From Azolla caroliniana (Eukaryota; Plantae; Polypodiophyta), in contig JBHGNT010000011.1 of assembly GCA_043228905.1 (NCBI GenBank), positions 992,001 through 1,056,000 of the forward strand: 64,000 nt of DNA, written 5' to 3'. Below the pieces are notes generated by a model. The model ran no database searches, was not told the origin of the DNA, and saw only the letters and a program-made list of their open reading frames with translations. Positions within the stretch are counted from its first letter, which is position 1. Every line of letters starts with the position of its first letter. The translations under genes and the position numbers were made by a program. This document shows, piece by piece, positions 14,983 to 55,166 of the stretch.

Positions 14983-16070
14983 TGTCGTGAAGATTTTCGG
15001 CAATGGTGTGAAAATCACATAAAACGTACAAAATTGAGTATGAACCACATAAAACAATAATAGTGAAGATAACATTTTAAATAAGTTTAATATCTAAGTA
15101 CAAAATGATGGAGGTCTTCGAGAGCTTTCGAATGCACTTTATTACACGAGAAACGAACAACTAGATGTCAAGATATGAGGGTATAATGTTTGTGAAAGGA
15201 AAAGAGAAAACTGTGGGATATCCCACATAGGCACGACAAATACGACTCTCATCATATATAAGGTAGAGCAAATGCTATTAACTTTGTGTCTATGTGTGGA
15301 GTGGAGGTGGCCTAACCACTTGTAATGGTTTTGGCCGACCAAAACCGGACCGACGATGGAGCCGGTGATCCGGCGGAACCGACATCCGACGGAGCCGGCG
15401 AGCCGGTGGAACCGACATCTGGCGGCGCACCGGCATCCGGCGCCGGCAGCCATTGGTAACCGGCAGCATCCGGCGAATCGGCCAAAAACCGGCATTCGAC
15501 GAACCGACGACTAGATAAATAAATATATAAATGTATATACATATACAAGGAGGACAAGTAAGGATTCAAACCTTGCACCTCCAAGTTAGGAGTCAATTGG
15601 CTTACCACTAAGCCAAAATATTTAGCTGAAATTATATTTCTATCATCATACTTTTACATATAAATTCTTATGCATGAGGGCTAAAATGAGTGACATGGTT
15701 ATCATGCACCACATATAATACACGAGCGCCAAATGGCAAACATGCATCATATGCATGGGGGCATCTATAAAAGGATGGATGACAATGTATTATGGATCCA
15801 TGTATGAACGAAGAAATTAATGAGAAGAAAATTCATTGATGATATATCCTGTTTCTTAAATCAAGAGTTAAAATCTTAATCTCAATATCTCTCTCTTGGC
15901 CATATCAATCTTTCTCAATCTAAGTCAAGCGTTTAATCTTAATCTCTTTCTCTCTCTCAATCTATCCTAAATACTTTCTCGCTAAGGTTGGTGCGAACTT
16001 TGATCCTTCCGGTCCAAAACCCCGGCGGTTCCGCCTCGCGATCCGCACCTAGTGACGGATCTTCACGACA
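14983..16070 (+). repeat. 3' LTR (1088 bp) with 12-bp terminal inverted repeat TGTCGTGAAGAT...ATCTTCACGACA
   Basis: Follows the PPT. Reverse-complement homologue of the solo LTR at 34101-35216. Confidence 0.9.
15551..15620 (-). ncRNA. tRNA-like Pol III cassette inside the LTR, antisense to the element
   Basis: Minus strand TGGCTTAGTGGTAAGCCA (A box, D-arm hairpin) ...GGAGGTGCAAGGTTTGAATCCTTAC (B box, T-arm). No acceptor stem. Confidence 0.6.
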
Positions 16071-34100: not shown

Positions 34101-35216
34101 TGTCGTGAAGATCCGTCACTACGCGCGGATCGTGAGGCGGAACCACCGGGGTTCTGGACCGGAAGGATTCAAAGTCGGTACAAGCTTTGGCGCAAGCTTT
34201 AGCGAGAAAGTACTTAAGATAGATCGGGAAAGAGAGAAGTTGAGATTACACAATTGAGAGAGATTGATTGAACTTTTAACTTTAGATTTAAGAAACAAGT
34301 TACACGATCAATTTGATAACGAATTTCTTCCTCTTAATTTTCATAAAAAAAAACCCTCCTTTTTCTCCTCCCCCTTCCTTCTTTTATAGATGCTCTCATG
34401 CATATGATGCATGTGAGGGTACTACAAGACATGCATAAATTGCATGTTTGCCATTTGGCGCTTATGTATTACATGTGGTGCATGATAACTATGTCACTCA
34501 TTTTAGCTCTCATGTATGAGAATTTACATGTAAAACTACAATGATAGAAATATAATTTCAACTAAATAGCATGGCTTAATGGTAAGCCAATTGACTCCTA
34601 ACTTGGAGGTGCAAGGTTTGAATCCTTACATACCCTCCTTATATATGTAAATATGTATATATATTTATATATTAATTTATCTAGTCGCTGGACGCCGGTT
34701 CGTCCGATGCCGTCGTGCGTCGGTTGCCACCGGATACCCGTGTCGTCGGTTACTGGTGCCTCGCCGGATACCGTCGTCTCACCGGCGCCGGCGCCGGATG
34801 TCGTCGTCTCACCGACTCCATCGCCGGTCCGGTTTTGGTTGGCCAAAACCCTTTACGAGTAGCTAGCCCACCTCCACTCTTAGTTCAAGTTACCTTGAAC
34901 TCTCTATGCTCCACACATAGACACAAAGATAATATCTTTTGCTCTACGTTATATATGATGAGAGTCGTATTTGTCGTGCCTATGTGGGATATCTCACAAT
35001 TTTCTCTTTTCCTTTCACAAACTTTATACCCTCATATCTTGACATTTAGTTCTCCGTTTCTCGTGTAATAAAGTGCATTTGAAACCTCCATCATTTTGTA
35101 CTTAGATATTAAATTTATTTAAAATGTTATCTTCACAATTATTGTATTATGTGATTCATACTCAATTTCGTACGTTTTATGGGATTTTCACACTATTGCC
35201 GAAAATCTTCACGACA
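34101..35216 (-). mobile_element. solo LTR of the TGTCGT-ended Gypsy family
   Basis: Reverse complement of 14983-16070. 4-bp TSD CCGG (34097-34100 / 35217-35220). The empty-site homologue is at 57101-57118 (GTGCATCGGTTCATTAGG). Confidence 0.92.
34572..34629 (+). ncRNA. tRNA-like Pol III cassette in solo LTR
   Basis: TGGCTTAATGGTAAGCCAATTGACTCCTAACTTGGAGGTGCAAGGTTTGAATCCTTAC contains A and B boxes. Confidence 0.6.
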
Positions 35217-39480: not shown

Positions 39481-40295
39481 TGTCGTGCCTTTCGGCTCCG
39501 GATCGTTGCGTGAGTCGGGCGGGAACCACTGAGGTTTTGGACTAGGAGAAAGAAGAATATGAGATAAGGCTAGTAATGAATAGGTAGAACGATAAGTAAG
39601 TTATGAATCTCGTGAATCCCACAATTTTAGTGTATTTCATCAATATTTAGATAGTAAGAGACAATTTTGATCACAAATTCGTGAATCCCATGCATATATT
39701 AATTGGTTGGTGTTTTCGGAAATATATCCAATTTCCAAGTATTTTCACACCCCTATTACATTGTGCTCCCCATCCTTATATAGTGATGAGAGAGTCTTAA
39801 CAATCCATGCTTTTTCTATAAATAGACTGTATGCTTTCTCTAACATGCTTTTTCTAAAGTGATCCTACTTTTTCTAACTTGATGCATTTTTATCGACTAT
39901 GGTGTTCATGCACGTTAAATGTGCATGCGTAGCTTTTTCTTTTATCATGCGTTTTCTTCTAACTAAAGTTTATCCTAGTGTGCACTTACCTTTCTATGTG
40001 GGACGTCTACTTTTTTAACATTAATGGTATGTTAGTGTACTGGTAAGGCTTTACATTATTAACATGGAGGTACAAGGTTTGAATCCTGCCCTATGCATGT
40101 AACAATCTTTTCTTTTATTTACAAATTTGTCTCTTCATCCGGTTCTCACCGGTTTTCTTTATCCGGTTCTTACCGGGTCTTCCTCACCGACTCTCACCGG
40201 CCTTCTTCATCCGGTTCTCACCGGGTACTCTTCATGTCCCATCCGGAGAGACAAAAAATACGTTTTTCACGTAGTGTGCGAATTACACTACGACA
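39481..40295 (-). mobile_element. solo LTR related to the LTRs of 47798-55166
   Basis: Ends are reverse complements of 47798-48625 (TGTCGTGCCTTTCGGCTCCGGATCGTTGCG...ACACTACGACA). 4-bp TSD ACGT/ACAT (39477-39480 / 40296-40299). Confidence 0.9.
40033..40090 (+). ncRNA. tRNA-like Pol III cassette in solo LTR
   Basis: TAGTGTACTGGTAAG-13 nt-AACATGGAGGTACAAGGTTTGAATCCTG, followed by CTTTTCTTTTATTT. Confidence 0.55.
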
Positions 40296-47797: not shown

Positions 47798-47987
47798 TGT
47801 CGTAGTGTAGGTTGCACACTATGTGGAAATTATATTTTTGTCCCTCCGGATAGAGAATGGAGTGCTCGGTGAGAACCGGAAGAAAACGGCATACCGACAA
47901 GGAGGAAAACGGCATACCGGCAAGGAGGAAAAACGGCATACCGGCAAGGAAGAAAACGGCATACCGGCAAGGAAGAGACATAAATGT

Positions 47988-48090
47988 AAAAAAAAAAACA
48001 GGAAATACTCACTACTGCGCAGGGCGTGATTCGAACTCTGCACCTCCACGTTGACGAACCCCAACCTTACCATTACATTAACTTATCTTA
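47988..48090 (-). ncRNA. tRNA-like Pol III unit with T11 terminator in the 5' LTR (second copy at 54529-54631)
   Basis: Minus strand TAATGTAATGGTAAG-13 nt-AACGTGGAGGTGCAGAGTTCGAATC...CCTG-T11, with an AT-rich TATATTTAAAA upstream. Confidence 0.6.
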
Positions 48091-48629
48091 AGTGTTTTAA
48101 ATATAGATTTAATACGTATAAGACCTTTATTTATGCATACCTTTATTAAAAGGTAAATCGTGTATTTTTTTTTATATATGAAAAAGAAAAACGCGAGACA
48201 CTAAAAATAACTCATGCACATCTAGCGTGCATGAGCCCTATACTTAGGAAATAAATAAAAAAAAAAGCATCACATGCACATTTAGTGGACATGAACACTT
48301 TTTGTAAAAAGCATGTAGCTATGCTTAGTCTCTCCCATCACTATATAAGGATGGGGAGCACATTGTAGTTGTTGTTGATTATTTGGATTACGTATTAATC
48401 AATACAAAAATTATTCGTGGGATTCACGATTTATACATCTACTTCTCTCTTAACACCCTAAGTACCAATTAATATAGTATACTCGTGTGATTCACGAGTT
48501 TCTTATCTTTCTCTTTGCTATTTACTCATAATTAATCTCTATCTCACGAACTTCTTTCTCCTAGTCCAAGACCTCTGTGGTTCCCACCCGACTCACGCAA
48601 CGATCCGGAGCCGAAAGGCACGACACAGT

Positions 48630-48647
48630 TGGTGAACCCGACGTGAA
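48630..48647 (+). promoter_or_regulatory. primer-binding site, tRNA-Trp
   Basis: TGGTGAACCCGACGTGAA is complementary to the plant tRNA-Trp 3' end as recalled (...TTCACGTCGGGTTCACCA), 4 nt after the LTR. Confidence 0.85.
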
Positions 48648-48663
48648 AGCGGGTGGCAAGGAG

Positions 48664-50703
48664 ATGGAGGCTCAACAAGCTAACAATATGATGGCGATGT
48701 TCGAACGGATGCTTCAAGAACAACGCACGATGTCGGAGATTTCGGCATCAGTAGAGCGGCTCGTGCAACGCAACGGGCAATTTAATGGTAAGGATGTGTC
48801 GCGATATTTGCAGGACTACAAGGCGGAGATGCTCCGGTGCCGGGCTTCGGAAGGACTGCAAGTGACATCCTTTAACCGGGTGGCGACCGACGGGCTTCAA
48901 GGGAGTATCCACGGGTTGCAACAACAAAATCCGACGTGGGAAGCATTCGAAGAGGCGTTAAAGACCACGTTTGCCATTGAGGACTCCTCCAAGGCAACGC
49001 GGAGGGGATTCGAGGATTGGGTGGAAACGTCAGGTAAGGGGCTGAAGGTCCTCGAAGTGTTTTCGACATTCGAAAGTCGGTTCGGGAGGTTGTCCGCGAG
49101 AGATCAAACTATTCTTGCACCGGACAAAGTCATCATGTTTTTGCGAGCTGTAGACGTCCGGGACCGGAAAGATCTCGGAGTGCTTCTTGAGGACACGACC
49201 ACCGAAAGCGGCCTCACCGAAACATGGGAAAGCGTGCGGGATATCGTCGCGCGGTACACGAAGAGGGGGCAATGGCTTGCCAACGAAGAAAAGAGGGTTT
49301 CGGAACCGATTCCGAAACCGAGAACGGGACTGGAAGACCATCAACCGAGGGCTCGGGAGATTACGGCCGAGAAGGGAGTCGACGCGTCTACGGTGGAGCA
49401 GCTGCTGAAGGAGATGGAGAATCTAAAGATTGCGATGGTGAAGAAGTCGGACGACCGCCCCACAAGCTCCAAATATACGGATCGACGGTGCATATGGTGC
49501 GATAGCGCCGAACACGATCGGAGGGATTGCGACGACCATAAGGAGGCGCTACGACGGGATCTCATCTACTACGAGGGAAACCGGATTCATTCGATGGACT
49601 CTCGGAAGCCACTCCGACCGAACTTCCGGAAAGGCGGCATGAAGAAGGTGCTCGAGGAGGAGTTAGCGGCAAGAAGCAACTATGCGACAACCGCGGGAAT
49701 ATGTGTCGGGGAGTCAACGGGAGCGAAGGCGTCTTTCTGGCCGGAGGTGCTAGGAAACACCGAGAAAACCGACTCCAACGATATCCGAAACACCGCGGAA
49801 GGCGTCCGGGAAGCTACGGGATGGGAGTGCCCTGTCGACAAGAATAGCATATACGCCCTGTGTCAATTACATGAGGTGTATGTGGACGAGAAACGACGGC
49901 GCACGGAGGATGCGGCCGGACCATCGAAGATACCGGAAAGCTGGAACTCCGGAGGTAAGGGAAAAGAAAAGGCGACTCCGGCATTCAAGCTCGCCTCGGA
50001 CATAGAACAACAAACCGACTTGAAAAGAGTGTTCGAGGAAAGAATCTTGGATAGCCGGGTAGATTTTTCGCTGCGAGAACTACTCGGAATAGCGAAGAAG
50101 GAGTTTCACGATCTTCTCGTGGATCTCGTGAAAAGAAAGAGACAAAGTACGGAGGAAAATGCTCCAAGGGTGAATGCAAATACCGTTTCAATGAACGACA
50201 CCGAAGTGGAAGGCGAAATCCCGAACTCCCACTATACAAGGCCACACTGGGCACGTGCGACTACGGAGACTCCGGTCCGAATCGGCAACATCAAAGAACC
50301 CGTGCTAGCATTGATTGATCACGGATCGGAGATCAACTTGATGTCCAAGGAGTTCTACCGAAAGGGGAAGTGGCCTATAAACACCAACCATGGATGGAAG
50401 ATTCGGGCAGCCACGAAAACGACAGAAGACCTATTTGCGGCTTGTCCGGATGTGACGGTAAAGATCGGGGATGTCGAAATTGACCAAAATTTCTTTGTGC
50501 AGGATGAGGTTTCACATTCTGTCATCCTCGGCCAACCCTTTATCACGGCTTCACGGATGGAGACGAAGGTGCTCGATAGTGGTGCGGCTTTTGCGCGAAT
50601 TCGGAGCCAAAACGGAGGGAAATCCGTCCAATTCCTAACGGTGCCGGCAAATCACGAAAGGAACAAGAGGGAACTCTTGTCCCAAGTGAGAATGGATTTT
50701 TAA
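48664..50703 (+). CDS. gag-protease (679 aa)
   Basis: FNGKDVSRYL gag start, CIWCDSAEHDRRDC knuckle, a DUF4100-like segment (FKLASDIE...SLRELLGIA), and aspartic protease LIDHGSEINLM...VILGQPF. Confidence 0.9.
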   Translation: MEAQQANNMMAMFERMLQEQRTMSEISASVERLVQRNGQFNGKDVSRYLQDYKAEMLRCRASEGLQVTSFNRVATDGLQGSIHGLQQQNPTWEAFEEALKTTFAIEDSSKATRRGFEDWVETSGKGLKVLEVFSTFESRFGRLSARDQTILAPDKVIMFLRAVDVRDRKDLGVLLEDTTTESGLTETWESVRDIVARYTKRGQWLANEEKRVSEPIPKPRTGLEDHQPRAREITAEKGVDASTVEQLLKEMENLKIAMVKKSDDRPTSSKYTDRRCIWCDSAEHDRRDCDDHKEALRRDLIYYEGNRIHSMDSRKPLRPNFRKGGMKKVLEEELAARSNYATTAGICVGESTGAKASFWPEVLGNTEKTDSNDIRNTAEGVREATGWECPVDKNSIYALCQLHEVYVDEKRRRTEDAAGPSKIPESWNSGGKGKEKATPAFKLASDIEQQTDLKRVFEERILDSRVDFSLRELLGIAKKEFHDLLVDLVKRKRQSTEENAPRVNANTVSMNDTEVEGEIPNSHYTRPHWARATTETPVRIGNIKEPVLALIDHGSEINLMSKEFYRKGKWPINTNHGWKIRAATKTTEDLFAACPDVTVKIGDVEIDQNFFVQDEVSHSVILGQPFITASRMETKVLDSGAAFARIRSQNGGKSVQFLTVPANHERNKRELLSQVRMDF

Positions 50704-50757
50704 AGCGGACTGTTGCGGAGTGGGGAAGTGATAGTCCGAGAAGCCCTGATACCCCAC
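50694..50757 (+). promoter_or_regulatory. -1 programmed ribosomal frameshift signal (G GAU UUU plus H-type pseudoknot)
   Basis: Slippery GGATTTT at 50694-50700, 5-nt spacer, stem 1 50706-50716/50728-50738, stem 2 GTGGGG 50720-50725 / CCCCAC 50752-50757. Confidence 0.8.
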
Positions 50758-53700
50758 ACAGGAAGAAAACTCTCGGAGCAAAACAAGTACGAATCGGCCC
50801 GGATGGGGCATCTACGTACACGGCCGTAACCGGAGGAATGAAGAAACAATACCGACAAGTGGAGGATAAGTTACGGTCGGCATCAATAATAAAAGAGGAC
50901 GAAGAAATCGTGGGAGTGATCGAGGAAGTGTTCTATGGGAATACACTACAACGGCTTGAAGAGCTTGCGGAAGATAAAAGCCAAGGGAACCGGGTAGTCC
51001 CGGTGGAATCGGTCGAGATGTACGAGATCGTTGCGAAAATGGGGCCGGATGCGCTCCACAAAGAAGAAGCAATGGTAAGTACGAAATACAAGACCGTGGA
51101 GAAGAAGGTGAAACCGGCCGCGGGACCACTACCCGCCGATAGCGAACAAAAGAAGAAAGAAGTCTCGGGAGATCCGACACTTCGGAAGTCCGTGGATATC
51201 GGACATGCCTTCACGGATGAGACCCGGAAGAAACTTCGGATCGGTGGAGGTGGGTTCCTATTACAGAAAGAAGAAGAACGGTTTCGCGAGATGTTGGAGC
51301 AACACGGCAAAGCGTTTGCATTTACATCAAGGGAGATAGGGTGCGTCGATCCGAGAATAGTGGAGCCAATGGTGATCTTTACGATTGACCATGTACCGTG
51401 GAATCTGAAGCCGATTCCGGTGCCACGGGCGCATATTCCGAAAGTCATCGACTTGCTCAAGGAGAAGGTGGCGATGGGGATTCTAGAGCCATCAAGTGCT
51501 CCGTACTCAAATCGATGGTTTACGGTTCCGAAGAAGAATGGGTCACTCCGATTCATCCAAGACTTGCAACCGGTGAACAAGGTCACGATCCGGAACTCGG
51601 GAGTCGGTCCGATAGTGGACGAATTCGCGGAAGCTTTTGCCGGACGTGCGATATACTCCATCGGGGACCTATACTCGGGGTATGACCAATTCCAACTAGC
51701 CGTGGAGAGCCGAGACATCACTACCATGCGGACACCGATAGGACTAGTTCGAATGTGCACACTACCACAAGGAGCGACAAACTCGGTTGCACATATGATG
51801 AACGCGATGAACAAGGTGCTTCGAGATTGCATCCCGGAGATAACGATGCCGTTTCTAGATGACATTCCGATGAAAGGATGCGCGGTGGAAGAAAAAGATG
51901 AGACTACGGATGATCGGGGATGCCGAAAGTTCGTGGTCGACCATATTCATGATTGCGAGAAAGTGTTGCGAAAGCTAGAAGATGTGCACCTAACACTTTC
52001 CGGGGAGAAATCGGCATTCGGGCAAGAAGAAATATTGGTGGTCGGACATCTATGTGGACCCTACGGCCGAAGACCGTCACCAACAAAGATCGATGCGATT
52101 CAAGCTATGAAGGAAGTATGTGAGTCAACATCGGAAGTCCGAAGGTTTCTGGGTGCGTGTGCATTCTATCACATATGGATTCCGCACTATGCACATATAG
52201 CGGACCCGCTCTATCACTTGTTGCGGAAAGGTAAGAAATTCGAGTGGAAACCGGAACACACTAAAGCCATGAGGAAGCTCAAGAAGACACTATGGAGGGC
52301 GGAATCACTTAAGAAGCCAAGCTACGAGCGGCCAATCATAGTAACGGTTGATACAAGTCCAACCGGTATCGGGTGGGTCATCAATCAAGCCGACTCGGAT
52401 GGTTCGCGGTATCCGATCCGATTTGGAGCAAAGGTCCTCAACGAAAGGCAACGCGGATATGCACAAGTCAAAAGAGAATTGTGGGGAGTCGTGTCGGCGA
52501 TAAAATCGGATCGGGATTATTTGATCGGAGCTGAAGTGGTGATCGAGACGGATTGTCTTCCGATACTCGGGATGATGCGGTGTTGTACGATACCGGATGT
52601 GGCTATGCTAAGGTGGATTGCATATGTCAAGTCACTTAATCCGGAGGTTCGACACATCTCGGGGAAGGACAACGCGGTAGCGGACATGTTATCGAGGGCG
52701 CGGTTTGAAGACGACATAACCGAATCAGATAATGAAGAAGTTTCCGAAGACTACTTCACGTCAGAACACATATGCCGAGTGAACGTGATCCGAGAATTCC
52801 GGGAAGAAGAATACGAGGGGGAAACCTTGATGATCGGGAAGATGCTACAAGAGGTCGAGGATTCAACCAATGATAAAGAAAGGAGAGCCGAGATCCGAAG
52901 GAAGAAGAGGCAAGTCCAAAAGTTCTTCTTGGAAAACGGTTTAATATGGAGGACGCCGAAAAGACCGGATGGGATACCACTTCGAGTAGTCGGGACGAAA
53001 GAGCAACGAAACCGGATAATGTCCGAGTTCCACGAATCCGATTGGGCTGGACATCGAGGAACATGGGCAACTTTTGTGAAAATCAAGCAAAGGTATTGGT
53101 GGAAGAACATGTATAAAGATGTCGCGGAGTTCACAGAAAGCTGCGAGAAATGTCAAGTCTACTCCGGGGTCCGACACCGAGATGAGCTGCATCCGACATT
53201 CTCACCGACAATCAACTTCAAGTGGATGGTCGACATTGTAGCTATGCCGACCGGGATTGGACAAAAGAAATACTTGGTGTTAGCTCGAGAAGATCTCACA
53301 AACCAAGTTGAAGGTCGAGCGCTTCGGAGGAAAACGTGTGCCGCGGTGTGCCAATTTCTTTTGGAAGAAGTGTTTTGTAGGTACGGCTGCGTAGGACAAG
53401 TGATTGCGGACCGGGGAGAACTCGACTCGGACAAAGCTAGGGGATTCTTCGCCAAACATGGAGTTCGGTTAACGTTGACAACGGCCTACAATCCGGAGGC
53501 CAACGGGAAGATCGAACGAGGACATAGTCCGATCGTGAAAGCACTTGCGAAGGCATGCGACGGAAGGGTGAAGGATTGGCCACAAATGCTTCCGTATGCA
53601 CTATGGGCGGATCGGACGACGCATAGCTCCGTGACCGGTTACATGCCGGCAGAACTCATGACCGGACAAGCACCGGTAATGCCAACGGAAACCGCAATCG

Positions 53701-54305
53701 CGACATGGACAATACTACCGTGGAAGGAAGAGATGAGCCGGGAAGAACTACTAGCGGTCCGGATACGACAACTGGAGGGAAGACCGAAAGATGTAGCGGA
53801 AGCGTCACGCCGACAACAAGAAGCACGGTTCCGGAACAAAAGCCGGTTCGACACAAAGCACCGACTACGACCGAGGAGGATTGAAGAAGGAGATTGGGTG
53901 ATCGTCTATGATAGTAGCTTGGACCATCAACATACAACGATGCGGAAATTCGCGAAAAGGTGGTTCGGGCCGTACGAGGTTCGGAAGGTCTTCGACAACG
54001 GGACGTACCGACTGTCCGAGTTGGATGGAACAATACTACGAGTGCCTATAGCCGGGAAGCGGGTGAAGATTTTCAAGAAGCGGACCGACGACAAACCTTA
54101 TGTGATCCAAGTCGAGGCCGACAACGAGGAGCAATCGGACGAAGACCACAATGATGCGGGAAGCGAAGAAAGTGGATTACAACTCATAGTCGACATAAGG
54201 GGAGAATCGGAGGAAGCTTCGGATGAAGACGGATACGAAGAAACAAGAACTTCGGCACATACCGGAGGATGTGCGGGTTTGGAGGGGGCGAGTGTCGTAG
54301 TGTAG
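50700..54305 (+). CDS. RT-RNase H-integrase, expressed in the -1 frame
   Basis: Frame is open from the slippery site to TAG at 54303. Motifs DLYSGYDQF, LPQGATNSVA, FLDD, VDTSPTGIG, HRG...CEKC zinc finger, D-D-E core, WFGPY. Confidence 0.92.
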   Translation, partial: LKRTVAEWGSDSPRSPDTPHRKKTLGAKQVRIGPDGASTYTAVTGGMKKQYRQVEDKLRSASIIKEDEEIVGVIEEVFYGNTLQRLEELAEDKSQGNRVVPVESVEMYEIVAKMGPDALHKEEAMVSTKYKTVEKKVKPAAGPLPADSEQKKKEVSGDPTLRKSVDIGHAFTDETRKKLRIGGGGFLLQKEEERFREMLEQHGKAFAFTSREIGCVDPRIVEPMVIFTIDHVPWNLKPIPVPRAHIPKVIDLLKEKVAMGILEPSSAPYSNRWFTVPKKNGSLRFIQDLQPVNKVTIRNSGVGPIVDEFAEAFAGRAIYSIGDLYSGYDQFQLAVESRDITTMRTPIGLVRMCTLPQGATNSVAHMMNAMNKVLRDCIPEITMPFLDDIPMKGCAVEEKDETTDDRGCRKFVVDHIHDCEKVLRKLEDVHLTLSGEKSAFGQEEILVVGHLCGPYGRRPSPTKIDAIQAMKEVCESTSEVRRFLGACAFYHIWIPHYAHIADPLYHLLRKGKKFEWKPEHTKAMRKLKKTLWRAESLKKPSYERPIIVTVDTSPTGIGWVINQADSDGSRYPIRFGAKVLNERQRGYAQVKRELWGVVSAIKSDRDYLIGAEVVIETDCLPILGMMRCCTIPDVAMLRWIAYVKSLNPEVRHISGKDNAVADMLSRARFEDDITESDNEEVSEDYFTSEHICRVNVIREFREEEYEGETLMIGKMLQEVEDSTNDKERRAEIRRKKRQVQKFFLENGLIWRTPKRPDGIPLRVVGTKEQRNRIMSEFHESDWAGHRGTWATFVKIKQRYWWKNMYKDVAEFTESCEKCQVYSGVRHRDELHPTFSPTINFKWMVDIVAMPTGIGQKKYLVLAREDLTNQVEGRALRRKTCAAVCQFLLEEVFCRYGCVGQVIADRGELDSDKARGFFAKHGVRLTLTTAYNPEANGKIERGHSPIVKALAKACDGRVKDWPQMLPYALWADRTTHSSVTGYMPAELMTGQAPVMPTETAIATWTILPWKEEMSREELLAVRIRQLEGRPKDVAEASRRQQEARFRNKSRFDTKHRLRPRRIEEGDWVIVYDSSLDHQHTTMRKFAKRWFGPYEVRKVFDNGTYRLSELDGTILRVPIAGKRVKIFKKRTDDKPYVIQVEADNEEQSDEDHNDAGSEESGLQLIVDIRGESEEASDEDGYEETRTSAHTGGCAGLEGASVVV

Positions 54306-54377
54306 GTTGCACACTATGTGGAAATTATATTTTTGTCCCTCCGGATAGAGAATGGAGTGCTCGGTGAGAACCGGAAG

Positions 54378-54516
54378 AAAACGGCATACCGACAAGGAGG
54401 AAAACGGCATACCGGCAAGGAAGAAAACGGCATACCGACAAGGAGGAAAACGGCATACCGGCAAGGAGGAAAAACGGCATACCGGCAAGGAAGAAAACGG
54501 CATACCGGCAAGGAAG
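54378..54516 (+). repeat. 23-bp tandem repeat in the Gypsy LTR U3 (6 units; 4 units in the 5' LTR at ~47883-47975)
   Basis: AAAACGGCATACCG(A/G)CAAGGA(G/A)G repeated. Confidence 0.95.
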
Positions 54517-55166
54517 AGACATAAATGTAAAAAAAAAAACAGGAAATACTCACTACTGCGCAGGGCGTGATTCGAACTCTGCACCTCCACGTTGACGAAC
54601 CCCAACCTTACCATTACATTAACTTATCTTAAGTGTTTTAAATATAGATTTAATACGTATAAGACCTTTATTTATGCATACCTTTATTAAAAGGTAAATC
54701 GTGTATTTTTTTTTATATATGAAAAAGAAAAACGCGAGACACTAAAAATAACTCATGCACATCTAGCGTGCATGAGCCCTATACTTAGGAAATAAAAAAA
54801 AAAAAAAGCATCACATGCACATTTAGTGGACATGAACACTTTTTGTAAAAAACATGTAGCTATGCTTAGTCTCTCCCATCACTATATAAGGATGGGGAGC
54901 ACATTGTAGTTGTTGTTGATTATTTGGATTACGTATTAATCAATACAAAAATTATTCGTGGGATTCACGATTTATACATCTACTTCTCTCTTAACACCCT
55001 AAGTACCAATTAATATAGTATACTCGTGTGATTCACGAGTTTCTTATCTTTCTCTTTGCTATTTACTCATAATTAATCTCTATCTCACGAACTTCTTTCT
55101 CCTAGTCCAAGACCTCTGTGGTTCCCACCCGACTCACGCAACGATCCGGAGCCGAAAGGCACGACA

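Follow-up and report, generated by a model that had tools for sequence, protein, structure and literature searches.

A tRNA-like A/B box unit in antisense orientation in the LTRs of two Gypsy lineages of Azolla caroliniana

Five LTRs in a 64,000-nucleotide stretch of the Azolla caroliniana genome (contig JBHGNT010000011.1, positions 992,001 to 1,056,000; here called the window) contain, antisense to the element, a motif resembling the A and B boxes of a tRNA gene. Why should a protein-coding Gypsy retrotransposon hold in its LTR what looks like an internal Pol III promoter pointing backwards? In the answer that we favour, judged from sequence and given a probability of about one half, the unit would derive from a tRNA gene and be under selection as a Pol III internal promoter, useful to the element because TFIIIC and Pol III sit on the DNA and aid an open Pol II promoter.

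The unit in the window and the element that carries it

The motif copies lie at 15563-15607 (-), 34580-34624 (+), 40041-40085 (+), 48028-48072 (-) and 54569-54613 (-), every one inside an LTR and on the strand opposite to it (5/5), as the original prediction had described. With their boxes in full, the units cover 48027..48080 (-) in the 5' LTR of an intact element (A box 48080-48069, variable-loop AGGT, B box 48037-48027) and 54568..54621 (-) in its 3' LTR. The others are found at 15562..15615 (-) in the 1.1-kb 3' LTR of a truncated element (14983-16070, +), at 34572..34625 (+) in a 1.1-kb solo LTR (34101-35216, -) with the flanks CCGG/CCGG, and at 40033..40086 (+) in a 0.8-kb solo LTR (39481-40295, -). 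In all five units the A box of 12 nt and the B box of 11 nt are separated by a spacer of 31 nt, and the three unlike 13-nt middles are as had been stated. The heptamer TGGTAAG, formerly taken for the A box, is not that box; the A box is the 12-mer ending in its TGGT, with an A as third base in the family of the element at 47798 and usually a G elsewhere. With an A and a B box at tRNA spacing the unit has the layout of a type 2 Pol III promoter, the A box being weakened in some families.

A functional tRNA gene was considered and rejected, as the unit has no cloverleaf, no fixed anticodon and no model match; the proposed tRNA-model check, run with ARAGORN and Rfam, returned no tRNA match in the window or on single units. 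The window unit folds more poorly than 196 of 200 shuffles. A T11 run at 47988..47998 (-), 28 nt beyond the B box, is a possible Pol III terminator in the window's family only, and the first run of at least four Ts after the B box comes at 21, 28, 28, 73 and 207 nt in the five window units.

The intact Ty3/gypsy element (47798-55166, 7.4 kb) sits in a Copia coding region. Its 5' LTR of 828 bp (47798..48625, +; left flank ACGT) and its 3' LTR of 874 bp (54293..55166, +; right flank ACGC) differ by 2 mismatches over 828 aligned bases. The Pol II promoter is predicted at a TATA-like box (48341..48348, +) that lies 261 bp from the A box, and the primer-binding site at 48630..48647 (+) pairs with the 3' end of the tRNA-Trp(CCA) encoded in this genome. 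An ORF of the gag region (48565..50703, +; 712 aa stop to stop) is overlapped in a different frame by the Pol ORF (50580..54305, +; 1241 aa) for RT, RNase H and integrase, in which no chromodomain was found, and a polypurine tract is located at 54279..54292 (+). Matching 4-bp NCGN duplications are present in 30 of 33 pairs of young copies of this family. By the order RT-RH-INT, the absence of a chromodomain, the tRNA-Trp primer site and the NCGN duplication the element is a Phygy-type Gypsy element, placed by features; most of its named RT relatives, at about 70%, belong to the liverwort Riccia. The accessible part of Neumann 2019 (PMC6317226) gives the Phygy clade a tRNA-Trp primer site, a 4-bp NCGN duplication, a compact internal region, no chromodomain and a length of 7.7-10.0 kb, and our element agrees in all of these but the length.

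Two further observations were made in these LTRs. A tandem repeat of 23-24 nt in U3 (window 47878-47975) has an unequal copy number in the two LTRs belonging to one element. Ten CpGs at 48416-48606, on the downstream side of the TATA-like box, are free of LTR-LTR differences in 33 young pairs, in contrast to CpGs upstream, which suggests that the R-U5 region is unmethylated.

Distribution and conservation of the unit

In the 523-Mb genome, 2,216 matches were obtained with the exact pattern stripped of its B box and 5,187 with a generic A/B pattern; the reversed-pattern control in the first case and the control in the second gave 0 matches. Of the first 30 generic matches, 27 lie in LTRs. The original prediction was confirmed here but was too narrow, since many generic matches belong to a second Gypsy lineage, with a Pol identity of 27% to that of the window's lineage. 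Its elements have a chromodomain, 5-bp duplications, a self-priming site complementary to their own LTR and a length of about 5.7 kb; these features, and not a tree, place the lineage as a Tcn1 chromovirus, in line with the accessible part of PMC6317226. The chromovirus unit is likewise antisense. Its distance to the LTR edge is 12-75 nt, and it precedes a TATA-like box by about 110 bp; no T-run belongs to it. A TGAAAATA-like word about 30 nt upstream of the A box is common to one chromovirus LTR (L162:2013-2450) and some Phygy units.

To avoid circularity, LTRs were also sampled through their primer sites alone, by taking the first 30 matches of three sets (847, 558 and 1,678 in the genome). 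The unit was present in 29/30, 22/30 and 29/30 of these LTRs and was antisense in all 80 that carry it, with a weakened A box in several young families. On a quick RT tree, made from 102 of 117 Phygy rows from this genome and metagenome contigs with rows below 300 aa omitted, units are spread over several separate Phygy clades. Forty of the 102 rows were scored as unit-free, in a scoring for which 41 Phygy rows had too little LTR and after which a profile search recovered weak units in rows scored negative or unknown (L247, L198-L200). Many Phygy families without the unit, likewise missed before, exist, and they include very young and abundant ones with GC-rich LTRs of 99-100% identity; the unit is therefore dispensable for the Phygy lineage. 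The median GC is 0.37 in 13 unit-bearing LTRs versus 0.49 in 19 related unit-free LTRs. The stretch from the unit to the TATA-like box contains clusters of CATGCA, which we take to be RY-like motifs, in the window at 48200-48325 and in related LTRs, with a median of 3 per LTR with the unit and 0 per LTR without it. Two LTRs of the 1.1-kb type (L313, L317) have a unit deletion in common, with the same junction in the A box.

Other layouts were also found. Three Phygy rows from metagenome contigs, the clade of L209, L210 and L215, have a single unit in U3 and have it in sense. Other Phygy families (L043, L167, L168, L087, L226, L234, L245) combine a tandem pair of antisense units, placed upstream of the TATA-like box, with a single sense unit on its downstream side. 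Both orientations thus point away from the promoter, and the duplicated units retain both box sets. The unit is also retained in short, internally deleted derivatives with a repeat unit of 2.5-2.9 kb (L102, L103, L173, L370, L376), which have near-identical LTRs and in some cases form tandem arrays.

The boxes had been expected to be more conserved than their flanks, and this was found for the 0.8-kb Phygy and the chromovirus LTRs but not for the 1.1-kb set. In the 0.8-kb type the identity between subfamilies is 0.95 for the A core, 0.91 for the B core and 1.00 for AGGT, compared with 0.54 for the middle and 0.55 for the whole LTR; 22/470 and 27/466 other U3 windows are equally conserved. For the chromovirus type the values are 0.90 (A core) and 1.00 (B core) against 0.62 for the whole LTR. 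In the 1.1-kb set the boxes do not exceed the LTR average (0.61/0.74 vs 0.66), and one of five clusters has no unit. When 0.8-kb and 1.1-kb LTRs are compared, nothing aligns except 25 nt spanning the B box, and 0.8-kb Phygy and chromovirus LTRs likewise align in the B-box stretch only. That boxes and spacing stay fixed while the LTR types barely align is thereby upheld. Across about 40 variants the spacer is 29-33 nt, mostly 31, within a range imposed by the scan, and in the scan-derived sets the scan itself accounts for part of the conservation of the boxes across families. Several tRNA positions outside the scoring matrix of the scan are kept as well in 25 variants, namely A44 (24/25), G45 (24/25), G46 (25/25) and the pyrimidine at 33 (25/25), and this retention supports tRNA ancestry. 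Both the tRNA origin and the selective retention of boxes and spacing across diverged LTR families, as proposed, are supported, and purifying selection very probably acts on the unit.

Little else of a tRNA gene is left. Pairing in the acceptor, D and anticodon stems is at shuffle level, the anticodon position is filled by 12 different triplets, and T-stem pairing is slightly above shuffles (Watson-Crick 0.54 vs 0.44), which leaves room for a constraint at the RNA level. The units fold with a median z of -0.65 relative to shuffles, 8/40 lying below -2; chromovirus units form a strong hairpin (z -5.3 and -4.3), and in the L162 variant (z -5.3) it is a long one in which the middle pairs with the B-box region. 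A T4 within 45 nt after the B box is seen in 21/38 variants versus 19.7 in shuffles. The T11 run of the original prediction is therefore present in the intact copy but not general. The TATA-like tract proposed upstream of the unit found no support, as no fixed position rises above the AT-rich background in 25 variants.

Among six tRNA types of this genome, an incomplete set, Arg(TCT) is the best complement in 10/11 units and tRNA-Trp in none. The unit probably derives from a tRNA-Arg-like gene, probably by way of a SINE head. A sporadic tRNA-derived SINE was rejected, in agreement with the earlier view, because the LTR units have no SINE body, no A-rich tail and no duplication of their own and 27/30 matches are in LTRs. 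The genome does contain a free SINE-like family in at least 40 places, about 320 bp long, with a tRNA-type A/B head and a long hairpin (z -5.1); copies are found at L164:4732-5049 (-), with an A-rich tail and a flanking direct repeat, and at L165, and some copies have internal tandem repeats. Its sequence does not match the LTR units. The presence of such a family, the many families without the unit and the conservation partly built in by the scan would fit an old SINE insertion that persists in the LTR as an inert, hitchhiking relic. This reading is largely refuted by the conservation of the boxes over middle and flanks in the samples chosen blind to the unit, and the spacer length, within its scan-imposed range, the retention of both box sets in duplicated units and the unlikeness of the free family also speak against it; we regard it as highly improbable.

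Differences between LTR pairs after insertion

An element inserts with two identical LTRs, and any differences between them therefore date from that event or later. Forty independent, RT-anchored young copies of the window's family were used, which gave 39 usable pairs. In these pairs the unit region has 27 LTR-LTR differences where 7.7 are expected from sequence context (3.5-fold, p 5.5e-8). On the unit strand C is mutated at 19/460 positions and G at 8/1072 (p 1.5e-5), while elsewhere the two are symmetric (p 0.86). The zone of excess mutation, C-biased on the unit strand, corresponds to 48007..48092 (-) and holds 29 of 58 events in the 40 young LTR pairs, 12 in 5' LTRs and 17 in 3' LTRs, from 17 elements.

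The test further covered a second Phygy set and the chromovirus, the 1.1-kb family being left out. In 24 other Phygy pairs, a set partly chosen to match over the middle of the unit, the C bias recurs (16/365 vs 4/478, p 0.001) with no overall excess (21 vs 19.5). The chromovirus pairs (11 usable of 23) show neither a mutation excess (9 vs 12.1 expected) nor a strand bias.

Transcribed tRNA genes have an excess of C-to-T changes on the non-template strand, according to the accessible part of 10.1101/229906. The C-biased excess is what antisense transcription would give and argues indirectly for activity in the window's family. Strand-specific methylation, or repair blocked under a bound factor, could also produce the bias; since events occur in both LTRs and only over the unit, it is less likely to stem from deamination of the reverse-transcription intermediate.

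A B-box CpG shielded from mutation, as an unmethylated site might be, was rejected: it differs in 5/25 pairs of the first set, compared with 85/1163 for all CpGs. C56 is mutable, with TG in 12/76 single copies and C56T in both LTRs of 3/40 young elements, and new insertions can thus inherit the mutation. In none of 10 multi-copy subfamilies, however, is TG the prevailing state at C56.

Possible roles of the unit and comparison with known systems

The analysis established the tRNA-like anatomy of the unit, its position and orientation, its occurrence in two distant Gypsy lineages, the keeping of the boxes over spacer and fold and, in one young family, a strand-biased excess of mutations. Real binding or transcription by the Pol III machinery at the unit is likely, and that the unit is of benefit as a barrier or promoter aid has an even chance. 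Several findings run counter to the promoter reading, namely the missing mutation signal in the chromovirus, the lack of an overall excess in the second Phygy set, the unremarkable boxes of the 1.1-kb set, the equally conserved other U3 windows of the 0.8-kb set, the young families without the unit, the deletion common to two 1.1-kb LTRs, C56T in both LTRs of some young elements, the weakened A boxes, the unshielded B-box CpG and the sense copies.

A short antisense Pol III RNA might itself be the selected product, for instance by feeding small-RNA silencing that limits the element or by pairing with U3 of the genomic RNA, which we consider unlikely. The mostly antisense orientation, the T11 at 28 nt in the window's family and a mutation bias consistent with transcription are in its favour, as are the T-rich unit strand after the B box (T4 in 21/38, A4 in 6/38), the chromovirus hairpins and the weak T-stem signal. 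Against these stand the lack of a common fold or middle sequence, a terminator distance that varies from 0 nt to none within 300 nt, and a chromovirus transcript that would run past the LTR into any flank. The conserved RNA of about 100 nt ending in U that had been proposed is weakened by the unconserved terminator and fold and by the chromovirus unit, which has only about 15 nt to the LTR edge and no T-run.

The unit could also act in the genomic RNA, whose U3 would hold a tRNA copy in antisense that anneals to the primer tRNA and aids priming or minus-strand transfer. In HIV-1, U3-R reportedly contains a tRNA-Lys3-like sequence tied to the primer tRNA, and Ty3 has a bipartite primer site. 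Like HIV-1, the LTRs described here show an antisense tRNA likeness in U3, which is the orientation that such annealing needs, and the conserved positions are also loop bases common to most tRNAs. Unlike in HIV-1, the unit does not match the primer. Arg(TCT) forms the strongest duplex with 10/11 units among the six types and the primer tRNA-Trp is never the best partner, its duplex at the unit (-37.7) being no better than elsewhere in the LTR (-40.1). In addition, the self-priming chromovirus, which has no tRNA primer site, keeps the unit in 29/30 LTRs, and sense-only families exist. A role in primer annealing is thus most improbable.

Boxes kept for a different role on the DNA, whether to bind a Pol II activator or to dock TFIIIC/TFIIIB and so steer integration, would agree with the fixed place upstream of the TATA-like box and with the company of the unit, which goes with AT-rich, CATGCA-rich LTRs while unit-free families are GC-rich. 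TFIIIC/TFIIIB guides the integration of yeast Ty3. The conservation of both boxes at tRNA spacing is, however, more than one factor site requires, and Phygy insertions obey the NCGN rule in the 30/33 pairs mentioned above, with no targeting of units noticed in an unsystematic look. We judge such a role decidedly unlikely.

This leads back to the Pol III promoter with an effect on the DNA. A tRNA-gene remnant, apparently pared down to A box, B box and tRNA spacing, would lie antisense in the U3 of Gypsy elements that code for proteins, with 110-260 bp between it and the TATA-like box downstream. TFIIIC would bind the B box and Pol III would transcribe in the direction that leads away from the Pol II promoter; a site occupied between the TATA-like box and the flank would help to keep that promoter open and perhaps to evade silencing, and any short antisense RNA would be a by-product. 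The selected effect is placed on the DNA because a backward promoter cannot yield genomic RNA and because the chromovirus transcript would exit the LTR at once. TFIIIC sites, tRNA genes and B boxes act as chromatin barriers in yeast and animals. The unit is like these barriers in having A/B boxes of the kind that recruits TFIIIC beside a Pol II promoter, and differs in that they are host loci and not borne by a retrotransposon; no plant demonstration of tRNA or B-box barriers was found in the literature searched. Only tentatively do we extend the proposal to a portable TFIIIC/Pol III barrier, kept by each of the two Gypsy lineages, that would shield the Pol II promoter in methylated transposon nests, with the unit-free sisters using a GC-rich LTR instead. 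If true, this would be a protein-free, transposon-borne anti-silencing element in thousands of LTRs, and the unit LTRs would be the most numerous Pol III-type sites of the genome.

The closest precedent, overlooked in the original prediction, is the Helenus group of TRIMs with TRIMp3. In the accessible part of Kojima 2024 (PMC10886601) these are non-coding elements of 311-1263 bp with a tRNA-derived sequence in both LTRs, in which boxes A and B are conserved but no functional tRNA is left; capture of a SINE head is proposed, the sole plant case is from Selaginella, the LTR units are in sense in the supplement, and Pol III is proposed to make the element RNA. The same source argues that the autonomous partners must use Pol II and states that "not a few" Repbase LTRs resemble tRNA, in an analysis limited to those below 1 kb. 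It also describes the Cassandra TRIM, a non-autonomous element whose LTR contains a 5S-derived type 1 promoter that drives the element transcript. Our unit shares with Helenus the tRNA-derived A/B boxes in the LTR, and with Cassandra the Pol III promoter of a small-RNA gene retained in a plant LTR, which is 5S-derived and in a non-autonomous element only in Cassandra. Its carriers differ from Helenus, as far as the latter is described there, in being protein-coding, 5-8 kb long (7.4 kb with ORFs of 712 and 1241 aa in the window) and equipped with a TATA-like box, and the unit is antisense in 80/80 primer-anchored carriers where that of Helenus is in sense. As both non-autonomy and orientation differ, the unit is not a member of Helenus and at most works like the promoter of Helenus or Cassandra.

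The accessible parts of PMC6317226 describe no tRNA-like LTR unit for Phygy or Tcn1, and those of the Physcomitrium transposon paper (PMC7466625) make no mention of tRNA, SINE or Pol III. In the accessible part of a 2026 sugar-beet paper (PMC13570524), Cassandra and Helenus/Ajax are the sole such systems cited. The novelty suspected earlier holds insofar as no description of a tRNA-like unit in autonomous plant Gypsy LTRs was found, in a literature coverage that was partial, with most subscription journals and Repbase outside it.

The earlier LTR Pol III promoters belong to short, non-autonomous TRIMs and drive the element RNA. Since a backward promoter cannot do this, its retention in two distant autonomous lineages suggests a different role. 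More than 5,000 intact-looking box pairs, together with natural unit-free sisters, make tRNA-type barriers in plants and the use of Pol III against silencing testable. The sense copies and the short deletion derivatives present here also offer a possible route to Helenus-like TRIMs, in which the sense-unit clade of L209, L210 and L215 is a possible step.

Apart from the LTRs, large tandem arrays of tRNA-Trp and tRNA-Lys genes were seen in the genome (G000) at C8:17.80-17.82 Mb, C16:4.99-5.11 Mb and C5:17.99 Mb, and the tRNA-Trp 3' end has 63 exact genome matches.
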